A DNA stretch of 54,783 nucleotides from an uncultured virus (IMG/VR IMGVR_UViG_3300025844_000001) (IMGVR_UViG_3300025844_000001), one strand, 5' to 3'. Positions 9,376-54,783 are shown, counted from the first letter of the stretch. Numbers and translations: made by a program. Notes: generated by a model from the sequence alone, not told the origin.

Positions 9376-10085
9376 CACAAACTAATCAAGCACTTGCATG
9401 GGGCGAATCTAAAGGCGAAGCAGCAAAGAACGGCCTACCGTTTATGAAGTTTCAAAAAGATAACCAATTCCGTATTATCAGCGGTATCGTACCTCGTTAC
9501 GTATACTGGGTTAATAACGCAGAGGGTAAGCCACGTACTTTCGAATGTTTAGCATTTAATCGTGCAACAGAGCGCTTTGATAACTCAGCTAAAGACCCTA
9601 TCCGTGAAGCGGGATTAACGCAGAAAGGTGAAGGAAAAGATGCTGGTAAGTTAGTCCCATTAAAGTGCAAACGTGCTTATGTGTGTCTAGCTATTAATCG
9701 CGCAACTGGTAAAGTAGAAGCAATTGACCTTAAAAAATCAATCTTCGATGGTACTAGCGATACAGCAGCTCAATTAGGTAAGTCTCCATTAGACTTCGAT
9801 ATCTTTGTTCAGAAAACAGGTTCAACTTGGAGTGACACAAAATATACTGTTCAGCAGTTAAAGTGTGGTGCTTACAAGCAAACTGACGAAGAACGTGCCG
9901 CAGACCAATTACTTATTGACGAATGCGATGATATTTCTAGCTTATTCCCGCGCCCAACATACGACGAAGTCAAAGCAGCTTTAGCGTCTTGGATGTCTGG
10001 TGAGAAAGAAGCTAAAGAAGAAGATGCTGATGGTAACTCTACGCACGAAGCAAGTCAAGAAGCTATTAACGAGCTTGAAGACTAA
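9372..10085 (+). CDS. D11: Single-stranded DNA-binding protein, T5 D11-like
   Basis: PRYVYWV..FECLAFNR motif; acidic C-terminal tail; synteny. Confidence 0.85.
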   Translation: MTQTNQALAWGESKGEAAKNGLPFMKFQKDNQFRIISGIVPRYVYWVNNAEGKPRTFECLAFNRATERFDNSAKDPIREAGLTQKGEGKDAGKLVPLKCKRAYVCLAINRATGKVEAIDLKKSIFDGTSDTAAQLGKSPLDFDIFVQKTGSTWSDTKYTVQQLKCGAYKQTDEERAADQLLIDECDDISSLFPRPTYDEVKAALASWMSGEKEAKEEDADGNSTHEASQEAINELED

Positions 10086-43830: not shown

Positions 43831-45138
43831 TTATCTATTGTGTGTATAAATTGCGTATCTCACGGCATCTGCCATATGAGAGTATTCATTGTGTAAAGGA
43901 CGTTCTGAAGTTAAGCCTTCTTTATCATCCCATCTATAGTTCATAAACATACTAATAGTCTTAGTACACTTATGCCATACTTTTATCTTACCTGCATGTA
44001 TTAATGATGCTAAGTGTCCAATCCCCTCGGACTGAGCTTTATTAGCTTTCGCACTAGATATATCATAATCGTAAGCTAAGTCAGCAATAAACTGAGCAGC
44101 CGCCGAGTCAACGAATATATAGTGAGGATCAAATCTATCTTCGAACTGTCTAATAAACTTAGCGTGAACAGAAGTCTGAGCACCTGCTTCTTCATACTCA
44201 TCTAGAATATAGTAGCAGTCAGATTCGTCATCATACTTAATACCTGTCATGGCAGTTGGGTCACGATAACCTGGGTCAATACCTAGGATACCCTCACAAT
44301 CTTCCGAAACCATTAAGCGGCCATATAAGTCCTCATCATTGAATACATGTTCCTCGTAATCGAATGATTCGTAAATTTGACCCTCAAACGTTGCAAAGTC
44401 AGCTTCGTATTCTTGTTTAAAGAATGCAGGGCTATTATTAGCACGTGCTTCATCAATATCTTCCTTACTAGCACGAGGGTTATCACGGTAAGTACCATGT
44501 AATGAACACCACTTAGATAACAAGGGATCACTACTAAACCCACGACGGTAGAACTCTTGGAACCAGTTAGCACCTCGAGGTGTTGAAATAAACAAAGCTT
44601 TAGAGTTAGGTTTATCAAGTGTAGGGCGTAACTGAATTGAGAAAGCATCCCCACCCTTAGGTGAGATAGCCGCTTCGTCAAATATAATAAAGTCGTAAGA
44701 ACGACCAACAGCGGAGTCAGCATTACCAGCAGAAGCTAGTTTAATAAGAGTACCATTAGATAACTCAATCTCTTTATCCTTGGCGTTTTCTTTCTCTGTT
44801 TCTAAACCATACTTACGTATAAGTCCTTTGATATGTGTCCAACCAATATTCGCTAGCGAGTAGTTGGGGCACACAACTAGTACTTTTACATTAGGCTCTA
44901 AAGCTTTTAAGAATCCTAAAGTATAGGCGATGAAAGATTTTCCGACACGCCTAGAAACGCAGCCGACCACGAAGCGTATGTTAGGATCGTTCAACGCATT
45001 AATGATAGCTATTTGTGGCTCGTTGGGGATAATTCCTTCCTGCAACATCATATTTTCGACAGGCAATTTGAAAAATCTTTCCCCGACAGGGTAGTTGGTT
45101 ATGCTAGTACGTGAAATAAAATCTCTAGAGAGTTCCAT
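43831..45138 (-). CDS. terL: Terminase large subunit
   Basis: SRRVGKS Walker A, IIFDEAA Walker B, ISTPRG, GIDPG, HMADAVRY. Confidence 0.96.
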   Translation of the reverse strand: MELSRDFISRTSITNYPVGERFFKLPVENMMLQEGIIPNEPQIAIINALNDPNIRFVVGCVSRRVGKSFIAYTLGFLKALEPNVKVLVVCPNYSLANIGWTHIKGLIRKYGLETEKENAKDKEIELSNGTLIKLASAGNADSAVGRSYDFIIFDEAAISPKGGDAFSIQLRPTLDKPNSKALFISTPRGANWFQEFYRRGFSSDPLLSKWCSLHGTYRDNPRASKEDIDEARANNSPAFFKQEYEADFATFEGQIYESFDYEEHVFNDEDLYGRLMVSEDCEGILGIDPGYRDPTAMTGIKYDDESDCYYILDEYEEAGAQTSVHAKFIRQFEDRFDPHYIFVDSAAAQFIADLAYDYDISSAKANKAQSEGIGHLASLIHAGKIKVWHKCTKTISMFMNYRWDDKEGLTSERPLHNEYSHMADAVRYAIYTHNR

Positions 45139-45624
45139 TTAATTTCCTTTGGCTAGGGAGGCTAGAAGATTGTCGTAGTTGCTGCCGCCATTAAGGTTAA
45201 CTTGTACGTTATTCTGACGACCTATGGTAGGGGACTTAGCTTCGTGTAGTTCCTTTTCCATTTTCATCTCTGCCATTTTCATGTTATGATACTTAACCAT
45301 TAGTTCTAAAATATCTGCATCTGTAGTAGTACCAGTTTCTTCCATTTCTTCTAACTTACGGTTAATAATCTCGTCTAAGGCACCAAACATGCGGTGTCTA
45401 TTTCTGAAGCCTGTCTCCATGAATACTGCGTTAGTATACGAACGGACTTCTGGTGTTCTTAATAATCTACGAACTTCTTGTTCATCAATCTTTAAAGCTA
45501 GAGCTGTTTTCTTAGCATCTTGGCCATTGGTTAGGTATGTGTCTGCAATTAATAATCCCTGGGGACTAATAGTCTCTGGGAGCAACGCGTCATCATACTC
45601 TACTAGTTTATCTTGGGTAGACAT
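45139..45624 (-). CDS. terS: Terminase small subunit
   Basis: T5-like P.TISP.G..I...YL..G.D, GFRNR, KLEEMEET; upstream of terL. Confidence 0.88.
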   Translation of the reverse strand: MSTQDKLVEYDDALLPETISPQGLLIADTYLTNGQDAKKTALALKIDEQEVRRLLRTPEVRSYTNAVFMETGFRNRHRMFGALDEIINRKLEEMEETGTTTDADILELMVKYHNMKMAEMKMEKELHEAKSPTIGRQNNVQVNLNGGSNYDNLLASLAKGN

Positions 45625-45689: not shown

Positions 45690-45807
45690 GATTAATTTTC
45701 TACCTCGGATGCAAGTAAGGTACTAGCCAAGTATTTTTAAATTAAAAAATTAAGAATTGTATTTGGAGTCTTTTAGATTAGTAGTCTCTTTGGGAGTGGA
45801 GGGGTGC

Positions 45808-45943
45808 GGGGAGTATAGGAAGTAAAGGGAGTATAGGAAGTTGGGAAGTAAAGGGAGTATAGGGAGTTAGGGGAATTATGCATAGTTATGGGAATTATGT
45901 ATAGTTATGGGAATTATGCATAGTTGGGGAATTATGCATAGTT
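45808..45943 (+). repeat. Purine-rich repeats and a 4x 18-19 bp tandem repeat near the inferred terminal-repeat junction
   Basis: GGGAGTATAGG x3; GGGAATTATG(C/T)ATAGTT x4 from 45871. Confidence 0.85.
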
Positions 45944-46039: not shown

Positions 46040-46146
46040 AAATGAGAATGAGTCTCATTACCGCCCCCACCCTAAATGCGAATGATTATCATTTGTTCCT
46101 GGCTTATCATATGCGAATGATTCTCATTTGATATTGATTATCATTT
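46040..46146. promoter_or_regulatory. Cluster of four Fur-box-like palindromes
   Basis: AAATGAGAATGAGTCTCATT, AAATGCGAATGATTATCATTT, ATGCGAATGATTCTCATTT, TTGATATTGATTATCATTT. Confidence 0.72.
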
Positions 46147-46154
46147 GTACATAA

Positions 46155-46186
46155 TAAAAATGCCCTTACTATATATTAGTAAGGGC
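46155..46186 (-). terminator. Terminator ending the pre-early leftward operon
   Basis: Minus strand GCCCTTACTA..TAGTAAGGGC then ATTTTT. Confidence 0.7.
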
Positions 46187-46266
46187 TAATGCTCTAACAG
46201 GGGGATAATGCAATGCTAACATATTGCACTATATTAGCATTGATGCATATACTACCAGCATTGCGC

Positions 46267-46890
46267 TTAGGCTGCTCTGCTGTCAAATTCAATTACCTGA
46301 TGAATAGCGCTCATTTCCCCGTCCAGATAACCCGCGTCTAATCCTTGCGCAAATCCTTCTTCAAATCCCATATCAAGAAAATCAGCCAGCATACTATTAA
46401 CACTAATTGCATCGTACACTTGAAAGCCAAACGATTGCGCCACCTTTAATACGCCTTTATGGTCATCGTATACAGTAAACGAGGCAAGAGGAAAACGGTT
46501 CTGTAAATGGTTAAACCAATGCCATTTGTAGTTTGCATCATTAAGATTATAAATCATTGATGCGGTTTCATTATCGAAGCGCTTGAATAATTGGTCACGA
46601 CTGCAAGTATACGCGGTTTTTAATCCGTTCTTTCTTAGGTATATGTAATCACTCTTAATCATGCGCCTTGCAGTAACGATTACCACGGTTTCCCCTTGGG
46701 CTATGCGCGATTGCATAAGTTTAGCTAAGGGTAAAAGTGTGTCATTCATAATGTTAGCGTGTGTTTGGTTGTCGCGATATGCTGCTAAATCTAGGTTGCC
46801 ATCATTATCGTAGGGGGTGCGATGGTCGCTATCTATAACGGTTCTGTCTAGGTCAAAAATTGTAATATGCTTTGGCTTAAATTGGCTCAT
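46267..46890 (-). CDS. dmp: Deoxynucleoside-5'-monophosphatase (HAD family), T5 dmp-like
   Basis: IFDLDRT, VTARR, YDD HAD motifs; position in the pre-early region. Confidence 0.85.
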   Translation of the reverse strand: MSQFKPKHITIFDLDRTVIDSDHRTPYDNDGNLDLAAYRDNQTHANIMNDTLLPLAKLMQSRIAQGETVVIVTARRMIKSDYIYLRKNGLKTAYTCSRDQLFKRFDNETASMIYNLNDANYKWHWFNHLQNRFPLASFTVYDDHKGVLKVAQSFGFQVYDAISVNSMLADFLDMGFEEGFAQGLDAGYLDGEMSAIHQVIEFDSRAA

Positions 46891-46929
46891 TTTTTAATAC
46901 TCCGTCATTACGGGGAAAAAGGGTTGCTT

Positions 46930-46945
46930 TGTTCCACGTGGAACA
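46930..46945. promoter_or_regulatory. parS: parS centromere-like site 1
   Basis: TGTTCCACGTGGAACA within a 24-bp perfect palindrome (46926-46949). Confidence 0.78.
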
Positions 46946-46956
46946 AAGCGGGTTAA

Positions 46957-47193
46957 TTATTTAATGGTTGCTTCGATTTTTAAATCAATAACTAAGTTAT
47001 CGCGGGTAAGCTTTTCGTCTAGGTTTTCAACGTCCATTAATTGACCACTAGATAAAATAACGCACACATGGGTGTCGTCAGTTATTAAAATCAATTCGTT
47101 TGTATGGCATTCATTAACCTGAAAAAATTGCCCTGTTTCAGGTTCGAATGATTCTGGGGTGTCTTTGGTAAACGTGATATTAACTTGTGACAT
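46957..47193 (-). CDS. Pre-early hypothetical protein
   Basis: 78-aa ORF with GGAG RBS, flanked by the two parS repeats. Confidence 0.72.
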   Translation of the reverse strand: MSQVNITFTKDTPESFEPETGQFFQVNECHTNELILITDDTHVCVILSSGQLMDVENLDEKLTRDNLVIDLKIEATIK

Positions 47194-47223
47194 TTGGGTA
47201 ACTCCGTAAAAAGGGGGTTGCTT

Positions 47224-47239
47224 TGTTCCACGTGGAACA
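47224..47239. promoter_or_regulatory. parS: parS centromere-like site 2
   Basis: TGTTCCACGTGGAACA within an identical palindrome (47220-47243). Confidence 0.78.
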
Positions 47240-47289
47240 AAGCGGGTTAAGTTACTTAATGGGGTAGCCGTTATAATCTCTATCTAACA

Positions 47290-48963
47290 TTATGCTTGCT
47301 GCTCTCCTATTGCATACGTGGGAATTAATACGGCTGTATCATTTGGCAGGATTAAGGCGTTTGCTCTATCCCACATAGTACCACCTTTATTGTAGCCCAT
47401 TTCCAGCGAACCAGTAACGCCCACGGTTAACACATTACCATCACGGGCGGGTGAATGTGTATGGCCGCTAATCCAAGGCATCTGATAAGCTTTAAACGAG
47501 CGTTGCGAACCACGTGCGCCGCTGTTACCTAAATGCCCATGAGAACCACATTCGAATCCGTTAATCTTATGGCTCATATCTAGACGGCCAAATATAACAT
47601 TACTGGCTAATGGTTCCGCTAACTGCTCGACTAGTTTAGTGATTGCTAAATCAAACATTGCTAAGCGTGGTGCGTCTAGTTCGTCCCCGCTGTCAATTGC
47701 TTCTAAAACAGCATGTTTCAAGAAATAATACGTTTTAGCGTTGATAGGGTCTTTATCAGCGTTGTATTTTGGGTCATCAAGCCAGCTATCAAGGGCTAAG
47801 TCGTGATTACTGCAAACGATAAAAACGCTATCGCATTGGGCAGCAATTCTATTTACAACATGAACAGCATCATTTAAATCATCTAAAACAGAGCGGGAAC
47901 CCATTGTATATAGAAACAAACCGCTATTTCGATTGTGATGATTTCTAGACATAAAATCTAGTGTATCGTGTAAAATAACTTGTGAGGGCTGATAAATATC
48001 AATTTGGGCTAATGCTCTTACAAGCGAGTTTTCGCACATCTTTTCACAATGTAAGTCACCTAAAACTAGTGCTGGTGTCTTGTGAATCTCTGTTATGTTA
48101 AAACCATCATAACAGGCCATATCATAATAAAATGCCCCGCTTTCATCTGCCACAATTTCTTGATGCTCGACATAACCCTCATTAACAGTGACAACTAATG
48201 CCCCGAACGTATGTGAATCACATCCCTCCTCGCCTGCTCTGGTGTCAGTGTAATGGCGTTGTGTACATGAACCCGTTGTATATACCCAACGATGTGCACC
48301 ATCTTTTGAACGGGCTAGTGTTTTGAGTTGCTTTTTAGGTGAGGCAACAACGGTTAACGACTCGCCTTTATTCAAGTTTGCTGCCGTGTTAATTGGCTGC
48401 TTAGCGGTTGGCAGGATATTTGCCCCAACTGCCAAGCGAACACAGCCACGACCACCTAGCCAGATATTATTCTCTACTAGATAAGGTGTAACACTATCGT
48501 CATAAGTTGGCGTTTTGCGTTCCAAGCTATCAAGCGTTGTTGTGTATTTAATAGGCATCAATAAAAGTTGAGCCTCTAAAACACCCGCTAAAGTTTTTAA
48601 TGATTTTAGTGTAGGGTGCGGCAATGTATTATTTTGCGCACTAGAAATAATATAAACGCCATCAGGTAAGCTTTGCATAATATCGTCACGATGCATTAAC
48701 TCGCCGTTGAAAGTAGGAACTAACGGAGCGTTAACTTTTTCGGCTTTTTCTTTGGCTGGTGCTGGTGCTGGTTTATTTTCTGCCAGCCATTCCACTAAAT
48801 CGGCACTTTCTACCGTTCCGATTAACTCACATTCTCTAAGCATTTGTTCAGCACAAGTTAGGCGAGTTGAACGGGTACGCTTGCCATAATAATTAAACTC
48901 ATTTTGAGCAAGATTTAACAATGCCGCTTGTGTCGCTACAGATAGGTTTTTAACTTGTTTCAT
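47290..48963 (-). CDS. A1: A1 protein (pre-early DNase, needed for second-step transfer in T5)
   Basis: 557 aa; ISSAQNNT, TTGSCT, LGDLH, SNHD, HGH.G..GARGS, GHTHSP, MGYNKG. Confidence 0.9.
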   Translation of the reverse strand: MKQVKNLSVATQAALLNLAQNEFNYYGKRTRSTRLTCAEQMLRECELIGTVESADLVEWLAENKPAPAPAKEKAEKVNAPLVPTFNGELMHRDDIMQSLPDGVYIISSAQNNTLPHPTLKSLKTLAGVLEAQLLLMPIKYTTTLDSLERKTPTYDDSVTPYLVENNIWLGGRGCVRLAVGANILPTAKQPINTAANLNKGESLTVVASPKKQLKTLARSKDGAHRWVYTTGSCTQRHYTDTRAGEEGCDSHTFGALVVTVNEGYVEHQEIVADESGAFYYDMACYDGFNITEIHKTPALVLGDLHCEKMCENSLVRALAQIDIYQPSQVILHDTLDFMSRNHHNRNSGLFLYTMGSRSVLDDLNDAVHVVNRIAAQCDSVFIVCSNHDLALDSWLDDPKYNADKDPINAKTYYFLKHAVLEAIDSGDELDAPRLAMFDLAITKLVEQLAEPLASNVIFGRLDMSHKINGFECGSHGHLGNSGARGSQRSFKAYQMPWISGHTHSPARDGNVLTVGVTGSLEMGYNKGGTMWDRANALILPNDTAVLIPTYAIGEQQA

Positions 48964-49003
48964 TTTGTTACTCCGTCATTACGGGAAAATTTAAAGGGGT
49001 TGC

Positions 49004-49441
49004 TTACTTGCTACGTTTTTCTAGCGCTTGCCAGTTAACCGATAAGCCTGCCATACTACCATAAACAGCACAACTTTCGATATATGCTATTTTTGCTTTA
49101 AATAGCTTTACCATTGCGTCATTGTAGACGTTAACGGCCTTATCATACGCTAGTCTAACTTCATCATTTGAGCTGTTATAAGCAGTAAAGTTAATATTGA
49201 TTGCGCCAAGCAAAGCGCTAACATTTGCTTCTTGCAACATGCCGTTGTTGCTTGGGTGACGCTCGTTAGACAATTGGCGTATTAATTGCGTTAACGTATC
49301 ACGGTCAAGTTTAGCCGCTTCTTTTTGCTGAAATGCTAGTTCCTTTAAGCGCTCAATTTCGGACTGGGTATCTAATACGGCTGCAATATGGCCTTTATGC
49401 TCTGCGACTAAATCAGATAAGTTGAGTTTGGGTGAAAACAT
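49004..49441 (-). CDS. Pre-early hypothetical helical protein
   Basis: 145-aa ORF preceded by the conserved leader cassette with GGAG. Confidence 0.75.
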   Translation of the reverse strand: MFSPKLNLSDLVAEHKGHIAAVLDTQSEIERLKELAFQQKEAAKLDRDTLTQLIRQLSNERHPSNNGMLQEANVSALLGAININFTAYNSSNDEVRLAYDKAVNVYNDAMVKLFKAKIAYIESCAVYGSMAGLSVNWQALEKRSK

Positions 49442-49502
49442 TTTTTAATACTCCGTCATTACGGGAAATTAAAGGGCGCTAGAATTAACGCCCAGTTAAC
49501 AA

Positions 49503-49970
49503 TTACTTAACAGTGATTTCTGGCATTTCGGCAGCTTTCAACACTCCGTTTAATTTCGCTGTTAAGGTTTCCAACGCTTCTAAATTGGCCTTATCAAGCG
49601 TTTGGATTGTTTCAAGGTCAACGCCTAAACCCTCGGCAATTGAACGCACGTACTGACCTTTTGAGATACGTGTCGAGGTGCTTGGAGTTGGGACGGCTTC
49701 AAGGGTAATATAAACGCCCTCTTTTGATAACTTACCGCGAACAGCACGACCAGATTTCGCCCCAATTTTAACAGCGATTGCATTTAAAGCTTTTTCGCTG
49801 TTTGCTACCGTGTGTAAATCGACAGTAGGCTTCGAACCAACTTCAAAATCCAGCGTTTTAGTAACAGGGTTGTAAGTTGCACCTAGTAATTCAGCATAAA
49901 GCGCGGCAGCTTGTGAACAGGTTTCATCATTCCAAGCGAATTTTTTAGCTGGTGTTTTAGTTGTAGTCAT
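49503..49970 (-). CDS. A2: A2 DNA-binding protein
   Basis: KFAWNDE..A..LY, ANS..L..IA..IGA.S..AVR.KL, K..YVR.IA match T5 A2. Confidence 0.87.
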   Translation of the reverse strand: MTTTKTPAKKFAWNDETCSQAAALYAELLGATYNPVTKTLDFEVGSKPTVDLHTVANSEKALNAIAVKIGAKSGRAVRGKLSKEGVYITLEAVPTPSTSTRISKGQYVRSIAEGLGVDLETIQTLDKANLEALETLTAKLNGVLKAAEMPEITVK

Positions 49971-50059
49971 TTGTAAATCTCCTAGAAAGGGTTAGTTAGT
50001 TAATGGCTAAAGTTAGCCACAAAGAGCGCTTAATAAACGCTCTTTAAGATAACTCTATA

Positions 50060-50266
50060 TTACGGTTTAAATTTCCTTAACCTGCTGGCTTGCGTAAGCA
50101 AGGGCAGGATAGGCCAGAACAAACACAATACACATAAAACGTGGCCGTGGATAGGCTCTGAGGTAAAGAAAGTTTTATCTCTTGACTCCAATAATTGGCC
50201 TGTTAATAAACCAATTAAATAAGCCGCTAACATGTATATAGCAACAAATAATATAAACATTAGCAT
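50060..50266 (-). CDS. Pre-early small membrane protein
   Basis: Two hydrophobic segments, LFWP motif. Confidence 0.65.
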   Translation of the reverse strand: MLMFILFVAIYMLAAYLIGLLTGQLLESRDKTFFTSEPIHGHVLCVLCLFWPILPLLTQASRLRKFKP

Positions 50267-50269
50267 CCC

Positions 50270-50656
50270 CTAAATAATGCGAATTTCAGCGCTTGAATTA
50301 TGCGAATAACCGAGCATTTGCACAATTTGGCCTGCTAGCTGTTTCGGGTGTCTTGCCTTGCCACCGTTCAACACATAAAGGTCGAATAATGTTTTAGGCT
50401 TAACAGGTTTTTGGCGTTCAAGCGTTCGCAAATCGGCGCGGTATGCTTCGCGATAAAGTCGCATTGCTTCGGCGTCTTTGTCTTTGTCGCCCGTTCGCAT
50501 TGGTTCGAAATTTCCAGAACATAAAACGACTTCGGTTTTAATCCTTCCGTTTAATGTTACCCAAGATTTTTTAGGGGGAAAATTGCCCTTAGTACCGTGA
50601 TTTTTACGCAATACGGTAGCTTTTTTCGTTTCTTGGGTTTTAGGTGCCTTTGCCAT
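50270..50656 (-). CDS. Pre-early basic hypothetical protein
   Basis: Likely ATG at 50656 after GGAG; Lys/Arg-rich. Confidence 0.72.
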   Translation of the reverse strand: MAKAPKTQETKKATVLRKNHGTKGNFPPKKSWVTLNGRIKTEVVLCSGNFEPMRTGDKDKDAEAMRLYREAYRADLRTLERQKPVKPKTLFDLYVLNGGKARHPKQLAGQIVQMLGYSHNSSAEIRII

Positions 50657-50782
50657 TTTTAAAATCTCCAATGATTTTAGTTAGTGGTATTGACTAAAAG
50701 TTAGTCAATAATCACACTACTAATAAATAATGTGATTAATGATAACTTTAACTAGGCAAGTGAAACTTTTTTGTTACCAGAT

Positions 50783-50794
50783 TGTTAAAGAACG
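50783..50794 (-). promoter_or_regulatory. boxA-like antitermination element in the pre-early leader
   Basis: Minus strand CGTTCTTTAACA(AT), one mismatch from consensus CGCTCTTTAACA, about 25 nt after the promoter. Confidence 0.6.
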
Positions 50795-50822
50795 TTTAGG
50801 ATGCTGCCTAATCAGTGGAGCT

Positions 50823-50852
50823 ATTATTGCATGGAACCGTTTTTATTGTCAA
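50823..50852 (-). promoter_or_regulatory. Pre-early leftward promoter
   Basis: Minus strand TTGACA-18-AATAAT with extended TG and an A-tract UP element; weaker tandem candidate TAGACG-17-TCTAAT at 50948-50976. Confidence 0.65.
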
Positions 50853-51644
50853 GCTTTTATTTTTTCCTAGTACCTCGCGCTAATCAAAGCCGCTTCACAT
50901 CACAGGGTAAAAATAACATTGAAATGATGTCCCGTTTCAATGAAGCTATTAGACCACGTTTAAAAAATACCGTCTAATAACTAGTTAATATAAGTTATAA
51001 CTAGAATGCATAAGCCTGGGCTAGTTTATAAAAGAAACAGGTGCGAGCGCGTAGCAATAACCATGCCAACATGGTTATATATTAGATATAACTAATATGC
51101 CCGTAAAGGCATCAAAACAGCGATTTAAGCGACTTTAATTTTTTGGTCAGTCGTATATCAAAACAAATAGATTGTTGAATCTGGTGCTATTTGGTACTTA
51201 TCCACAGGGCACTTATCCACAGATAATTTTCCTGGTTTGTAATTTTGTGGATAACTTTCCTAGAATCCAAGGAATCGGCCTATTTGGTAATAGTTATCCA
51301 CAAGGGGCACGTCCAGGCTCTACCAGGTGGGGATAACTTTGTTAAGCATTATTTCAAATAAATTTGACATTTGTAAAACATGCTAGTTATTCACTTATCC
51401 ACAGATTTTTTATGTATAACTAGCAAATTGTGGATAGAAATGGCCTTTTGAGAATGTCAACCCCATTGCTTGTGGATAACTTTGTGGATAAGTCACGCTT
51501 TGGCTGCTGGTGGCATTTTAAAAAGGTTTTGATACTAGGGCTTCAAAAAATAATAGTACCGGCAAATCACGTTATAGCGCGTTCTAGAGCTATATATTAG
51601 ATTTTACTGTTATGGCACGATTCTTGACTTGGCACGATTCTTGT

Positions 51645-51777
51645 TGATAATAGTTCGCAACAAAAACCATGCCAACTTATATTAGTAGAATCTAATGTTA
51701 ATATTAGCAAACTTGCATATAGGTATATTAGCAAAAACGCATATGATAATAGTTCGCAACAAAAACCATGCCAACTT
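51645..51777 (+). repeat. 34-bp direct repeat with 99-bp period
   Basis: TGATAATAGTTCGCAACAAAAACCATGCCAACTT at 51645 and 51744. Confidence 0.9.
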
Positions 51778-51799
51778 GTATTAGCAAACTTGCATATGC

Positions 51800-51864
51800 A
51801 AATGATAATCATTCTCATCCTGGTAGCTCACTGGGTTGAATGCAAATGAGAATCATTCTCATTT
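51800..51864. promoter_or_regulatory. Two Fur-box-like sites
   Basis: AAATGATAATCATTCTCAT (51800) and AAATGAGAATCATTCTCATTT (51844). Confidence 0.75.
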
Positions 51865-51981
51865 CGCCGCGCCGAAAATTTTTTGGCATGATTCTTGCAT
51901 GTGTGGTACTTGTGGATAAGTCTAGACTTATTAACAGGTGAGTTATACATTAAACAAAATAATTTTGTGGATAACTTGGTC

Positions 51982-51998
51982 AATTGGTCTTACCATTG
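51982..51998. promoter_or_regulatory. PdhR-operator-like site
   Basis: AATTGGTCTTACCATTG vs AATTGGTnnnACCAATT. Confidence 0.5.
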
Positions 51999-52251
51999 TC
52001 AAAATGTTGCTGGTGGCCTATAAACCCTGTTGATAATGTATAACCTGTTAATAACCTGTGGATAAAAAAATCATTGAAACAGCCCTTATACATTATCCAC
52101 CGACAGGAAGCCGCCAAAACAGCGATTTAAGCGACTTTTGCAAGAAATAGGTATATTTGCCTAGGCTGGCTGGCTGGGCAGGTTTACCTGCCGGTAACCC
52201 TGGTTGGTTCCTGGTAAGAACAATGTTTTTCATTTTAGACCAAATAAATAG

Positions 52252-52335
52252 TTGATATGATTTATCAGTGTGCTATACTGTCTTTGTCGGGTAAGAAAAT
52301 AATTTCAACCCACTAAGCTAGGATTCAAAATTATG
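52252..52335 (+). promoter_or_regulatory. Rightward pre-early promoter + 50-bp leader (copy 1)
   Basis: TTGATA-16-TATACT with extended TG; leader 52286-52335 identical to 53169-53218. Confidence 0.7.
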
Positions 52336-52512
52336 TTTATTTCAGGCAAGCAAGAAGTCGTTTACATGGTTCAACACAGAACACTGAAAGGTCAGCAGGT
52401 GATTAAATTGCAAACAGACTCGGGGGTAGTTGTTACACTTGAGCGTGACGAATTAGCAGCTATATTTTCACAAATGCAAATGGTGCCATTAACCACTAAA
52501 TCAACTACTTAA
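52333..52512 (+). CDS. Pre-early hypothetical protein (59 aa, not in the ORF track)
   Basis: MFISGKQEVVYMVQHR...TTKSTT; starts at the ATG of the duplicated leader with AGGA RBS. Confidence 0.7.
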   Translation: MFISGKQEVVYMVQHRTLKGQQVIKLQTDSGVVVTLERDELAAIFSQMQMVPLTTKSTT

Positions 52513-52555
52513 CTTGGATAAGGCTAGCCTACGGGCTAGCCTAGAGGTGATAATC

Positions 52556-52702
52556 ATGCTAGTATTAATATTAACTATTTTAGCGGCTTTGTGTGGCGTA
52601 ATCGGTATAGCTCGTTCAATAGGTACAAACGACTTTAAGGCTGGTTGGTCAAAGCTTATGTTTACGTTCATCATGGCAGCACTTTTTGCGGGGGCATTTT
52701 AA
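52556..52702 (+). CDS. Small membrane protein
   Basis: GAGGTG RBS before ATG 52556; two hydrophobic segments. Confidence 0.65.
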   Translation: MLVLILTILAALCGVIGIARSIGTNDFKAGWSKLMFTFIMAALFAGAF

Positions 52703-52830
52703 TGAATTGTTTAATTGATATGGTAGCGTTAAAACTAGGATTATCAGAACGTATGGCTGTTGAGTTACTTAATTGTTGCGGCGTGGTGATTGTTATCGCT
52801 TTGTTGCTTTTCTGGGGGTGTAATGGTTGA
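52702..52830 (+). CDS. Small membrane peptide
   Basis: TAATG coupling; MNCLIDM...VVIVIALLLFWG. Confidence 0.55.
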   Translation: MNCLIDMVALKLGLSERMAVELLNCCGVVIVIALLLFWGCNG

Positions 52831-53041
52831 ACTATACTTACATGGCTGTGATAACGAAATTGATTGTTATTGTAACATTTCGGTAACAAAGCCAGAAGTT
52901 AAAAATTATGAGTTTTGTTATCATTATCGAATTTACGATTTGGAGGATTTAGCGGGTATATTAGCAGATGCTAATAAGTACAATTGTTCACAAAGTGTTA
53001 ATGAAATTGTCAAACTACTAGCATTAGTGGAATTTGAATAA
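52823..53041 (+). CDS. Pre-early hypothetical protein
   Basis: Likely ATG at 52823 after GGGGG; ends LLALVEFE. Confidence 0.6.
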   Translation: MVELYLHGCDNEIDCYCNISVTKPEVKNYEFCYHYRIYDLEDLAGILADANKYNCSQSVNEIVKLLALVEFE

Positions 53042-53067
53042 TAGAAGTTCACTGTTAACGCAAAGCT

Positions 53068-53124
53068 AAATGAGAATGATTCTCATTCGCTGCGCCGATT
53101 TTGGGTTTGGACGTCTAGACGGCT
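53068..53124. promoter_or_regulatory. Fur-box-like site plus two tandem Met boxes
   Basis: AAATGAGAATGATTCTCATT (53068); GGACGTCT-AGACGGCT (53109-53124). Confidence 0.68.
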
Positions 53125-53134
53125 AAAAGATTAC

Positions 53135-53218
53135 TTGCTACCAGTTGTCAGTGTGATATACTTATTTGGTCGGGTAAGAAAATAATTTCAACCCACTAAG
53201 CTAGGATTCAAAATTATG
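53135..53218 (+). promoter_or_regulatory. Rightward pre-early promoter + 50-bp leader (copy 2)
   Basis: TTGCTA-16-TATACT with extended TG; leader identical to copy 1. Confidence 0.7.
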
Positions 53219-53656
53219 AAAAACTCAAACCGCGCTACCCAATCTGTATCTCTTTGTGGTGATAAAATAGACTTTTCAGCCAAATCGTTTCACGATAATA
53301 ATAGAACTATTGTTATCGGCCATTCAGTACAACTAAACACTGGACTAGTTAGATCTATGGCTTCCCCTGCTCCGATTTTCGTATCTACTAAAAGCGTTGC
53401 AATGGATTACTCTAATTCAATTGGTACTTGGCTTACCGAGCAAACACTAGCCAAGGCAAAAACTCGAGTAGGTTACAGCGAAAAAGCTAGAGCAGAATTT
53501 AACCGCGAACAGGTTGCAAACTGCTCAATCGATTATACCGAATGCTATCAGGAAACATTTGACGAGGATATTTTCAACCACCTAGAAGCTGTACAGTATA
53601 ACGAGGATGAAATGGGCGCAGAATGTGAATTGCTAGCATTAGTGGAGTTTGGATAA
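53216..53656 (+). CDS. Pre-early hypothetical protein
   Basis: 146-aa ORF from the duplicated leader; acidic C-terminus ending LLALVEFG. Confidence 0.75.
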   Translation: MKNSNRATQSVSLCGDKIDFSAKSFHDNNRTIVIGHSVQLNTGLVRSMASPAPIFVSTKSVAMDYSNSIGTWLTEQTLAKAKTRVGYSEKARAEFNREQVANCSIDYTECYQETFDEDIFNHLEAVQYNEDEMGAECELLALVEFG

Positions 53657-53853
53657 TGAGCCTATCAAATAAAGAAAAGCGCTATTTATACTTGCTGCAA
53701 CAATACGAATTTGCTTGCAGCAAGCTAGCCAGCATATTAGATGAAAAATCTGATATTGAAAAGCGCATCACTAGACAACGTGCCAACGTAGATCACGCCC
53801 GAAATAAATTAGGGCGTGCTAATTTACCTAAACTTAAGGAGCTTTTAAAATGA
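53656..53853 (+). CDS. Pre-early hypothetical coiled-coil protein
   Basis: GGAG RBS, TAATG coupling. Confidence 0.7.
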   Translation: MSLSNKEKRYLYLLQQYEFACSKLASILDEKSDIEKRITRQRANVDHARNKLGRANLPKLKELLK

Positions 53854-54140
53854 GCTATTCTAATAACGCACGACTAGGAAGTATTAAAAATTCTAGTGTT
53901 GAAAAATTAACTATCTTAGATATAAATTTGGGTATGTTTTTATGCGCGTACCCTAGGGATAAATGGCATGATTTACTTCTAGAATCTACTATAGAGCTAG
54001 ACAATATAGAGGCCGAATCTTATTGTGAAGTAGCACAATTTACAGTACAGGACTTTAAGAAATTAGCCCCAATAGGCTATGGTATATTAGAAGAAATGAA
54101 TATACTAGAAGGAGTAGACAGAATTTATTTCCAGTGTTAG
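53850..54140 (+). CDS. Pre-early hypothetical protein
   Basis: AAGGAG RBS, ATGA overlap. Confidence 0.7.
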   Translation: MSYSNNARLGSIKNSSVEKLTILDINLGMFLCAYPRDKWHDLLLESTIELDNIEAESYCEVAQFTVQDFKKLAPIGYGILEEMNILEGVDRIYFQC

Positions 54141-54149
54141 CATAAAGTC

Positions 54150-54204
54150 AAATGAGAACTATTCTCATTCACCGCGTCGAAAAATAGTTGGCATGATTCT
54201 TGCA
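54150..54204. promoter_or_regulatory. Fur-box-like site followed by a sigma54-like element
   Basis: AAATGAGAACTATTCTCATT (54150) then TGGCATGATTCTTGCA (54189); same module as 51844-51899. Confidence 0.68.
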
Positions 54205-54366
54205 TAGGACTACACGCTTGCGCGTGTAGTTCGCCGTTTACACGCTATAACAGGTAAATCTAATATAATCCCTCCAGGCTATAGAATCTAGTACCACCTA
54301 ATATATAGCCCATCCCTGAAAGCAACTTACAGAGCCATTTAGACCCCTTAAAATGGACGTTTACAC

Positions 54367-54503
54367 TTATCCACATGTTACTACCACTGTATAAACATAC
54401 AGTGGTATAACCCTGTTAATAAGTTGTGGATAACTCGTTAGGTTGCTTTACAGGGATTATGCAATTAACGTGCCATGTGGATAATGTATAACAGTGTGGA
54501 TAA
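54367..54503. promoter_or_regulatory. DnaA-box cluster 2 with an embedded sigma54 element
   Basis: Perfect boxes at 54367, 54425, 54476, 54495; TGGCACGTTAATTGCA on minus strand at 54460-54475. Confidence 0.82.
54387..54402. promoter_or_regulatory. LexA (SOS) box
   Basis: CTGTATAAACATACAG = CTGT-N8-ACAG, inside the longer palindrome TACCACTGTAT-AAAC-ATACAGTGGTA. Confidence 0.72.
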
Positions 54504-54517
54504 CTTTGTATAACTTA

Positions 54518-54575
54518 GTTGACGTTTACGTAAAGGTAAACATTAGAAAAAACGCATATTGACGTTTACGTAAAC
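54518..54575. promoter_or_regulatory. Two LiuR-operator-like sites
   Basis: GTTGACGTTTACGTAAAG (54518) and ATTGACGTTTACGTAAAC (54558) vs GTTTACGTwwACGTAAAC. Confidence 0.65.
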
Positions 54576-54590
54576 TGCTAATCGTAATCG

Positions 54591-54638
54591 AAATGAGAAT
54601 GATTCGCATTCAAGGTGGGAATGAGAATGATTCGTATT
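54591..54638. promoter_or_regulatory. Two Fur-box-like sites
   Basis: AAATGAGAATGATTCGCATT (54591), AATGAGAATGATTCGTATT (54620). Confidence 0.62.
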
Positions 54639-54647
54639 CAACTTTGC

Positions 54648-54727
54648 GGACGTCTAGACGTCTAGATGGCCAGATGGCTGGACGTCCAGATGGCTAGACG
54701 GCTAGAAGTCTGGATGGCTAGACGTCC
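54648..54727. promoter_or_regulatory. Array of ten contiguous Met boxes (MetJ operator-like)
   Basis: GGACGTCT AGACGTCT AGATGGCC AGATGGCT GGACGTCC AGATGGCT AGACGGCT AGAAGTCT GGATGGCT AGACGTCC in exact 8-bp register. Confidence 0.8.
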
Positions 54728-54783
54728 AGCGTGAATGCACTAAGGCGGTGAGCGCAGCTCGGCGCTTTAGTGCGAAACCGATA

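Follow-up and report, generated by a model that had tools for sequence, protein, structure and literature searches.

Operator-like sequences for unrelated host DNA-binding proteins beside the predicted injection stop of a T5-like phage

During infection by phage T5 the entering DNA halts after the first 8% of the genome, and the cause of that halt has been an open question for decades. The question is raised in an unusually rich form by a DNA of 54,783 nucleotides from an uncultured virus (IMG/VR IMGVR_UViG_3300025844_000001), referred to below as the window, by which the whole stretch at its full length is meant. Between positions 46,040 and 54,783 it carries pre-early genes separated by gene-free blocks, and in the non-coding parts an earlier note, made from the sequence alone, had seen a mosaic of operators for many unrelated host regulators, which, it was thought, could titrate those regulators, coat or anchor the entering DNA, or sense host physiology before second-step transfer. 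Which host proteins do these sequences really resemble sites for, how far are the sites shared by related phages, and what might they do where transfer pauses? The analysis bears out the presence of operator-like sequences for unrelated host proteins in the tests made for DnaA, Fur, LexA, sigma-54 and MetJ, and it leads to a tentative proposal in which such proteins would assemble at the stop. Papers from 2023-2026 still call the T5 stop unexplained in their available text, and a 2026 PNAS paper, in the part available, describes it as poorly understood and possibly due to 'host components'. For one protein a model is in print: the available text of Davison 2020 (bioRxiv 10.1101/866236) reports, for 25 T5-like phages, eight DnaA or DnaA-like boxes in both repeat blocks, places the T5 shear point at ~9618, and proposes that membrane-bound DnaA binds the boxes and so halts injection.

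Reverse-complemented, the window corresponds to an internal part of an 89,861-bp virus record, from which it differs only by 1-bp indels near 47218 and 54743. Its base 54783 is not a genome end; in that nearest record the non-coding repeats reach ~55,700 and are then followed by genes. The gene order TerL, TerS, dmp, A1, A2, gene-free block, small rightward open reading frames (ORFs) and long gene-free block (Table 1) is that of the T5 left terminal repeat, which is annotated together with its injection stop signal. The T5-type arrangement is present, with a leftward dmp-A1-A2 operon, divergent small rightward ORFs and, beyond these on the right, a long gene-free block of repeats, and so are DnaA boxes in both gene-free blocks and GTGCAAATCCGA-type repeats after a GCGC nick consensus. 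The region is almost certainly the cis-acting, gene-free terminal-repeat DNA of a T5-like phage (Demerecviridae), with its second block as the injection-stop region and the whole corresponding to T5 Repeat Regions 1-3; synteny with T5 suggests that the stretch is repeated at both genome ends and is the first to enter the cell. The A1 protein is closest to those of Vibrio phages (49% identity with A1 of Vibrio phage Brizo), and DNA of the phage occurs in aquifer metagenomes. Searched by megablast against 50,697 phage records, the region gave no match, distant blastn matched only pieces of 55-113 bp, and a scan of IMG/VR with A1 returned only two identical contigs.

The firmest of the operator-like sequences are the DnaA boxes. 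All of the 14 perfect boxes claimed earlier are present (exact TTATCCACA 9-mers, TTWTNCACA), ten in the central gene-free block and four in the stop block, with none at positions 1-45624 of the window; shuffles of the window gave a mean of 0.54 and a maximum of 3. When the 10.3-kb region was compared with 100 dinucleotide shuffles of itself, the control used for every class of site, the 14 boxes stood against 0.07. The boxes form an inverted pair of modules on either side of the rightward operon. As ten exact boxes fall within 870 bp of AT-rich, promoter-rich DNA, they might be supposed to mark a DnaA-dependent replication origin or a packaging or terminus-recognition region, the other repeats serving replication or the terminase; the terminase genes do adjoin the repeat, and the repeats reach the inferred repeat boundaries. 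T5 origins, however, lie near the genome centre and its replication genes enter only with the second step, and in 25 T5-like phages the stop region is associated with just such inverted box modules around the rightward operon, according to the available text of Davison 2020, so that an origin or packaging role appears very unlikely.

Sites for other proteins are interleaved with these boxes. Nine palindromes match TGAGAATNATTCTCA at up to two mismatches and a tenth (46129) fits the textbook Fur 7-1-7 form, which agrees with the ten or so Fur-like boxes first counted; all are non-coding, none occurs in the first 45.6 kb, and the shuffled region yields 0.10 against the nine. The single LexA site also stands, as one perfect CTGT-N8-ACAG with its core at 54387-54402 (1 against 0.07). 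About eight sigma-54 -24/-12 elements had been proposed, of which four are strict (51053 and 54460 on the minus strand, 51884 and 54189 on the plus strand; 4 against 0.06), conforming to TGGCAYG-N4-TTGCW and having GG and GC exactly 10 nt apart within TGGCACG-N4-TTGCW. The other four are degenerate (51613 and 51630 on the plus strand, ~51668 and ~51767 on the minus strand, the last two found by eye in repeat family D14), and the two minus-strand matches were rejected, being better read as sigma-70 promoters (TTGGCA, 17 nt, TATTAT). The 12 Met boxes were recovered as a ten-unit tandem array and a two-unit site, with only one exact AGACGTCT unit and six at one mismatch; single Met boxes at one mismatch or less number just 8 against 2.0 in the shuffles.

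These sites are confined to the repeat. In the 10.1-kb repeat-like stretch of the 89.9-kb nearest record lie 14 of its 15 DnaA boxes and all of its Fur-like (9/9), sigma-54-like (4/4) and LexA-like (1/1) sites, and the remark that no comparable clusters exist in the first 45 kb is upheld by the counts of zero for DnaA boxes and Fur-like palindromes there. Their density had been overstated: far from being packed almost end to end, the listed sites take up 635 of 3472 non-coding bases (18%), rising to 40% in 54141-54783.

The phage-derived consensus of each class was used as a query on the whole chromosome of Escherichia coli K-12, with the reversed pattern as control; the operators so reached are those of a model gammaproteobacterium and may not be those of the phage's host. 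The Fur-like 19-mer at up to three mismatches has 16 places there against 2 for the reversed control. Nine of the 16 were inspected (all three with two mismatches or fewer and six others), and eight lie at 5' ends, namely those of yoeA (TonB-dependent receptor), ryhB, fecA, fecI, fhuE, bfd, gpmA and yddA, the ninth lying inside ydeM; the places were partly picked by recognised coordinates, and 8/9 is a biased fraction. At least six are at genes annotated as iron-related, and gpmA and yddA are presumably also under Fur regulation. The LexA-like 18-mer at up to two mismatches finds 14 distinct places, against 2 and 4 for the control, and the four of these that were inspected are the promoters of recA, umuD, sulA and dinD. 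No E. coli place comes within one mismatch of the ideal two-box Met operator and the best has two, whereas the window has one with a single mismatch (54648-54663) and one with two (53109-53124); the three Met places inspected, likewise picked by recognised coordinates, are the promoters of metC, metN and ybdL (methionine transaminase). For a 24-mer drawn from the consensus of the array, E. coli has no place. The strict sigma-54 pattern, searched for exactly, occurs at two places in the 4.64 Mb of E. coli (control 0 and 1), as compared with four in 10 kb of phage repeat, and both, yeaG and rtcB, are sigma-54 sites by chromatin immunoprecipitation sequencing (ChIP-seq) in the available text of Bonocora et al. 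2015 (PMC4591121). What these comparisons show is an equivalence of sequence between the phage elements and E. coli operators.

Sites of such quality, clustered as they are, could in principle serve as a decoy, the array titrating host regulators, derepressing the iron, methionine and SOS regulons and sequestering DnaA. That multicopy sites can titrate Fur or DnaA is indeed known in E. coli, from the Fur titration assay and the datA locus. An entering genome, however, brings only ~1-14 sites for each protein, whereas the host pools number hundreds to thousands of molecules, and the site set does not track the host repertoire. Moreover, T5-type pre-early functions degrade the host DNA within ~four minutes and shut off host expression (2026 T5 preprint, in its available part), and with the host DNA destroyed so early the freeing of host regulons would gain nothing. 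The titration hypothesis of the earlier note is accordingly regarded here as extremely unlikely.

A second kind of evidence comes from relatives. The repeats of ten other phages were mapped (T5, Hades, Pontus, D332, JSF10, PG07, AhSzw-1, PR1, Stubb and GZ8), and across the 11 an order is kept: LexA-type palindrome, DnaA pairs, sigma-54-type element, lineage repeats or Fur-like palindromes, 8-bp array, nick-site consensus and DRD repeats. At least two exact DnaA boxes occur in every one of the 11, the 14 of the window being by far the most (2-6 in the others), and an SOS-type palindrome adjoins the DnaA pairs in ten, with two copies in T5; both stay near consensus among phages with A1 identities of only 33-49%. 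Fur-like palindromes are present somewhere in the repeat of all 11, T5 included, and relatives also have such a site near the left end; between the DnaA cluster and the nick consensus they occur in seven, and the stop region of T5 itself is full of AAATGAGAATCATT-type units. Strict sigma-54 elements are found in all seven Vibrio/Aeromonas-type phages and in none of the four enterobacterial-type ones (T5, PR1, Stubb, GZ8). They total 19, of which 17 also have the consensus G after TGGCAY, and one copy always lies on the minus strand, immediately right of a DnaA pair of the stop block; the defined positions of this copy are kept, and its spacer differs among phages. The 8-bp arrays are known from five of the 11 (the window, Pontus, JSF10, AhSzw-1 and PR1). 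The array of the window (54649-54729) is also matched by distant blastn in the jumbo E. coli and Salmonella phages 121Q, A4, Turkey3 and SD-1_S14 (77-78% over ~73 bp), and CTAGA-phased 8-bp arrays are thus not confined to T5-like phages.

The T5 major-nick consensus followed by GTGCAAATCCGA-type repeats is at the syntenic spot in seven of the 11 phages. The surroundings of the major single-strand interruption annotated in T5 (CTGCGCY...GTGC; T5 9743-9760) are conserved right after the Fur-like or 8-bp arrays in seven of 11, which suggests that this phage, too, may have a site-specific nick there. Between the DnaA cluster and the nick site, different phages have different, lineage-specific repeats. 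Because the set of operator-like sites varies among lineages, no single protein beyond DnaA and LexA would be essential family-wide. As far as is known, the hosts of the compared phages all possess the proteins in question, and sigma-54-like elements and 8-bp arrays nevertheless come and go among the phages; the idea that the site set follows the regulators of each host is not borne out.

How, then, might these elements act? It is proposed that the conserved short elements are sites for host DNA-binding proteins already in the cell when the DNA enters. DnaA would be the firmest candidate, followed by LexA and Fur, and the aquatic lineages would add idle sigma-54 RNA polymerase and probably MetJ. 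Loaded in a fixed order just inside the stop point, these proteins would build up a nucleoprotein complex by which the DNA injected first is held, anchored or insulated while transfer pauses, one possible sub-role being to block polymerases that leave the rightward operon toward DNA still in the tail. Position is what speaks for this. The conserved nick consensus follows immediately to the right of the sites, and with the T5 shear point at ~9618 they should be just inside the cell when transfer halts; because the T5 halt also precedes phage gene expression, a complex of pre-existing host proteins is favoured. The alternative already raised in the earlier note, that the array coats or anchors the entering DNA, fits this position by a T5-type stop point and, for DnaA, a published model. 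A host-protein complex at the injection stop, as opposed to a regulator sponge, is nonetheless put forward with somewhat less than even confidence; the account as a whole, T5-type terminal-repeat DNA bearing such a complex at the stop, seems to us about evenly balanced between right and wrong. Binding of the proteins, a role of that binding in the pause and the presence of these proteins in the phage's host are what we infer.

In another explanation, the repeats would be a mixture of ordinary promoters and terminators with binding sites for proteins that the phage encodes or carries in its virion (A2, for instance, acting with A1 in restarting transfer or in shutting off the pre-early genes), the likeness to operators being incidental or reflecting competition with host proteins. 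A2 is a DNA-binding protein (49503-49970), many of the repeat families have no host look-alike, the slot between DnaA cluster and nick site differs by lineage, and two of the sigma-54-like matches are better taken as sigma-70 -35 regions. On the other hand, four or five independent matches equal or beat natural operators, which makes coincidence unlikely, the LexA-type palindrome and the DnaA boxes remain near-consensus at the A1 identities given above, and in T5 transfer stops ahead of any phage gene expression. This explanation is regarded as rather unlikely. Phage factors such as A2 would, however, also act at the repeat under the host-protein proposal, because sites turn over from lineage to lineage and many repeats are unexplained; at least a dozen other families share the same non-coding space, many of the families there being without a host look-alike, and phage-specific factors must therefore be at work as well.

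The placing of some sites near promoters suggests a further possibility, that the phage senses the state of its host, with Fur and iron, MetJ and S-adenosylmethionine (SAM), intact LexA, DnaA-ATP and sigma-54 with an activator acting on pre-early, antisense or non-coding transcripts or on the timing of the second step. A Fur-like palindrome and a two-box Met operator stand just upstream of the second rightward promoter (53069-53162), sigma-54 elements aim at both operons from ~380-450 bp upstream, and two of them have a Fur-like palindrome 36-37 bp upstream, as one composite repeat. Against this, most sites lie away from the best promoter matches, those in the stop block have no downstream gene, no activator site or gene was found, and a pause lasting a few minutes would leave a virulent phage little time to exert control, so that host-state sensing of this kind appears improbable. 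The composite repeat itself is 60 nt long and has two copies (51847-51899 and 54153-54204), each with a Fur-like palindrome, a GC-rich stretch, an A/T run and a strict sigma-54 element, and in PG07 a Fur-like site lies 56 bp upstream of the central sigma-54 element; the pairing hints at a coupled function. No activator gene was seen among the ORFs of the repeat, and Pfam searches of the small ORFs revealed no ribbon-helix-helix or other DNA-binding family.

A bolder version of the host-protein proposal combines holding with sensing. DnaA-ATP, uncleaved LexA and iron-loaded Fur, with SAM-loaded MetJ and idle sigma-54 polymerase in the aquatic lineages, would load in a fixed order and make up a composite landing pad that is both brake or anchor of two-step injection and a reading of the host's condition. 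If it were true, each protein would bind only in a healthy, well-fed cell, and the state of the host would be read physically on the entering DNA before the other 92% of the genome is committed. We hold this version to be speculative and distinctly unlikely. More generally, the likeness of the conserved palindromes of the stop region to SOS, Fur, sigma-54 and Met operators, beside the known DnaA boxes, reduces the question of the stop to a short list of host genes (dnaA, lexA, fur, rpoN, metJ and ihf) and to boxes that can be mutated. Mutants in rpoN and himA/himD that resist the Salmonella T5-like phage Aji_GE were considered and are not counted as support, the authors having ascribed the rpoN effect to RpoS and glutamine.

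Several observations weigh against a host-protein complex. The ideal two-box Met operator at up to three mismatches has seven places on E. coli and its reversed control more, 19; the 8-bp arrays are missing in six of the 11 phages; the stop slots of Pontus, Hades, JSF10 and D332 contain no Fur-like site; and the site set as a whole varies between lineages. The look-ups on E. coli, being partly guided by recognised coordinates, give biased fractions (8/9 and 3/3), and many of the repeat families next to the operator-like sites lack a host look-alike. Cytoplasmic proteins bound to DNA that is already inside would not obviously stop further entry. Binding of the named host proteins to T5-like repeats is a prediction.

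Table 1. Genes, gene-free blocks and operator-like or promoter-like features at the right end of the window (coordinates counted from its first base).
Feature	Coordinates	Strand	Remarks
TerL (large terminase)	43831-45138		
TerS (small terminase)	45139-45624		
Four Fur-like 19-bp palindromes	46041..46147		At 46043, 46077, 46112 and 46129; downstream of dmp, near inferred left repeat tip
GC-rich hairpin followed by T run	46162..46186	-	Likely terminator of leftward pre-early operon
dmp (deoxynucleoside-5'-monophosphatase type)	46267..46890	-	phrog_415, E 1e-25; position as in T5
24-nt perfect hairpin with parS-like 16-mer	46926..46949	-	Between two leftward genes; RNA fold -15.6 kcal/mol
Identical second hairpin	47220..47243	-	Just after A1 stop codon; RNA fold -17.1 kcal/mol
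A1 (DNA transfer protein)	47290..48963	-	phrog_1745, E 2e-145
A2-type DNA-binding protein	49503..49970	-	phrog_1725, E 4e-17
Central gene-free block	50672..52332		1.66 kb, between divergent pre-early operons; counterpart of T5 Repeat Regions 1-2
Best sigma-70-type match, leftward operon	50823..50852	-	TTGACA, 18 nt, AATAAT; consensus match only
Sigma-54-type -24/-12 element	51053..51068	-	Aimed at leftward operon; syntenic copies in Hades, Pontus, D332
Ten exact DnaA boxes	51198..52065	both	
Two tandem degenerate sigma-54-like units (D16)	51613..51645	+	Overlapped by sigma-70-like promoter match
Two 41-nt repeats (D14, D17)	51645..51784	-	Each sigma-70-type promoter-like (TTGGCA, 17 nt, TATTAT)
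Two Fur-like palindromes	51801..51865		
Strict sigma-54-type element	51884..51899	+	37 bp after Fur-like palindrome (composite repeat D19)
Rightward promoter match P_R1	52252..52279	+	Within 94-nt repeat D6
Seven small ORFs	52333-54140	+	Rightward
Fur-like palindrome, then two-box Met-type operator	53069..53124		Palindrome 53069-53087; just upstream of second rightward promoter
Two further 8-bp units (the two-box Met-type operator)	53109-53124		14/16 to ideal
Rightward promoter match P_R2	53135..53162	+	Second D6 copy
Start of injection-stop-type gene-free block	54141..54783		Counterpart of T5 Repeat Region 3; runs ~900 bp past window
Fur-like palindrome and strict sigma-54-type element	54151..54204	+	Second D19 copy
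Four exact DnaA boxes	54367..54503		Around LexA-type palindrome and sigma-54-type element
SOS-box-type palindrome	54385..54404		Centre of 26-nt palindrome
Strict sigma-54-type element	54460..54475	-	Abuts DnaA box; syntenic copy in 7/7 aquatic-type phages
Two copies of 17-nt direct repeat ('LiuR-like')	54519..54575	+	Lineage-specific
Two Fur-like palindromes	54592..54640		Slot of T5's Fur-like repeats
Ten tandem 8-bp Met-box-like units	54648..54727	+	First two (54648-54663) 15/16 to ideal two-box operator
GGCGC...GTGCGAAACCGA	54760..54783	+	Counterpart of T5 major nick site and first 'DRD'-type repeat; series continues beyond window

For three further regulators named in the earlier note the comparison gives no support. 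The two supposed parS sites are 16-mers with 14/16 matches to TGTTNCACGTGAAACA, the change being symmetric, and they form the cores of hairpins that sit in the short spaces separating genes of like direction; on the coding strand a T run comes after each hairpin. Hairpins similar to them were seen only in JSF10, the other phages having unrelated GC-rich hairpins at the same spots; we read them as RNA hairpins or terminators, at which ParB might possibly act. The PdhR-like and LiuR-like sequences are absent from all ten relatives, one PdhR-like match lies inside dmp, and the slot of the LiuR-like repeat is taken in other phages by unrelated direct repeats; these two assignments are likewise not supported.

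Other repeats accompany the genes and the edges of the repeat. A 30-nt leader (family D12), nearly identical in three leftward genes (46888-46917, 48959-48988 and 49439-49468, minus strand), forms a small hairpin directly ahead of the ribosome-binding site, and a 94-nt promoter-leader repeat (D6) opens both rightward operons (52242-52335 and 53125-53218). From TerS to the first Fur-like cluster (45792-45943) there are G-rich 9-bp-phased repeats (D3) and four 19-bp tandem units (D10), which have no host look-alike and may mark the left repeat boundary or a terminase site. A GTTGCTTTCAGGGA-type motif is found on both sides of the repeat-like stretch (45941 and 54314 of the window, and ~55130 of the nearest record); at up to two mismatches it has three copies inside the stretch and three elsewhere in the 89.9-kb record. 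Rfam yielded just two sub-threshold chance matches. The central block also holds two Chi octamers (GCTGGTGG), at 51506-51513 and 52009-52016, both on the plus strand, and in the repeats of the 11 phages 20 Chi are on the plus strand (T5 orientation) and 2 on the minus strand, where ~3 in total would be expected by an estimate from length alone. By the RecBCD rule, Chi in this orientation would act on enzyme that comes in at the right end and not at the left end, which is injected first.

The earlier note was not aware of any description of such an array. For DnaA, however, boxes and a docking model are in print, and no host factor other than DnaA is named for the stop in the text available: Fur, LexA, sigma factors and MetJ are not mentioned in the available text of Davison 2020, a BF23 paper of 2023, the 2026 T5 preprint or the 2026 PNAS paper, and no literature linking first-step transfer to Fur, LexA, sigma-54 or MetJ was found, though Heusterspreute 1987, Wang 2005 and Davison 2015 may hold such remarks. 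Operators of the SOS, Fur, sigma-54 and Met types in the stop region would thus be a new and testable lead, in contrast to DnaA docking, which has already been published.

The closest known system is the T5 repeat itself, with which the region shares its gene order, two gene-free blocks, DnaA boxes in both, a palindrome beside the DnaA pairs, AAATGAGAATCATT-type repeats, and a nick-site consensus followed by GTGCAAATCCGA-type repeats. It differs in having 14 exact DnaA boxes as against 3 in T5, a central block of 1.66 kb as against the 188-bp Repeat Region 2, and strict sigma-54-type elements and an 8-bp tandem array, neither of which is found in T5. Non-origin DnaA clusters of the datA type in E. 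coli likewise consist of consensus boxes and probably include no origin, but the phage boxes are on single-copy entering DNA, are interleaved with other operators, and are proposed to anchor the DNA and not to control initiation. Operators for host global regulators are also familiar in temperate phages, host LexA or Fur operators being present in CTXphi and at the stx1 promoter, and GIL01 is reportedly another temperate phage with an operator for a host regulator of the LexA/Fur type. There the operators coincide with a promoter and control a switch governing lysogeny or toxin, whereas here the phage is virulent and the sites, mixed with those of other proteins, occupy gene-free DNA at the injection-stop position. 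Finally, in the available text of Bonocora et al. 2015 (PMC4591121), the sigma-54 holoenzyme binds DNA in a transcriptionally inactive state and E. coli has sigma-54 sites without productive transcription, which resemble the phage elements in their strict -24/-12 motif and in that many have no gene to serve; the phage elements differ from them in being syntenic in 7 phages and in forming a convergent pair around the rightward operon.

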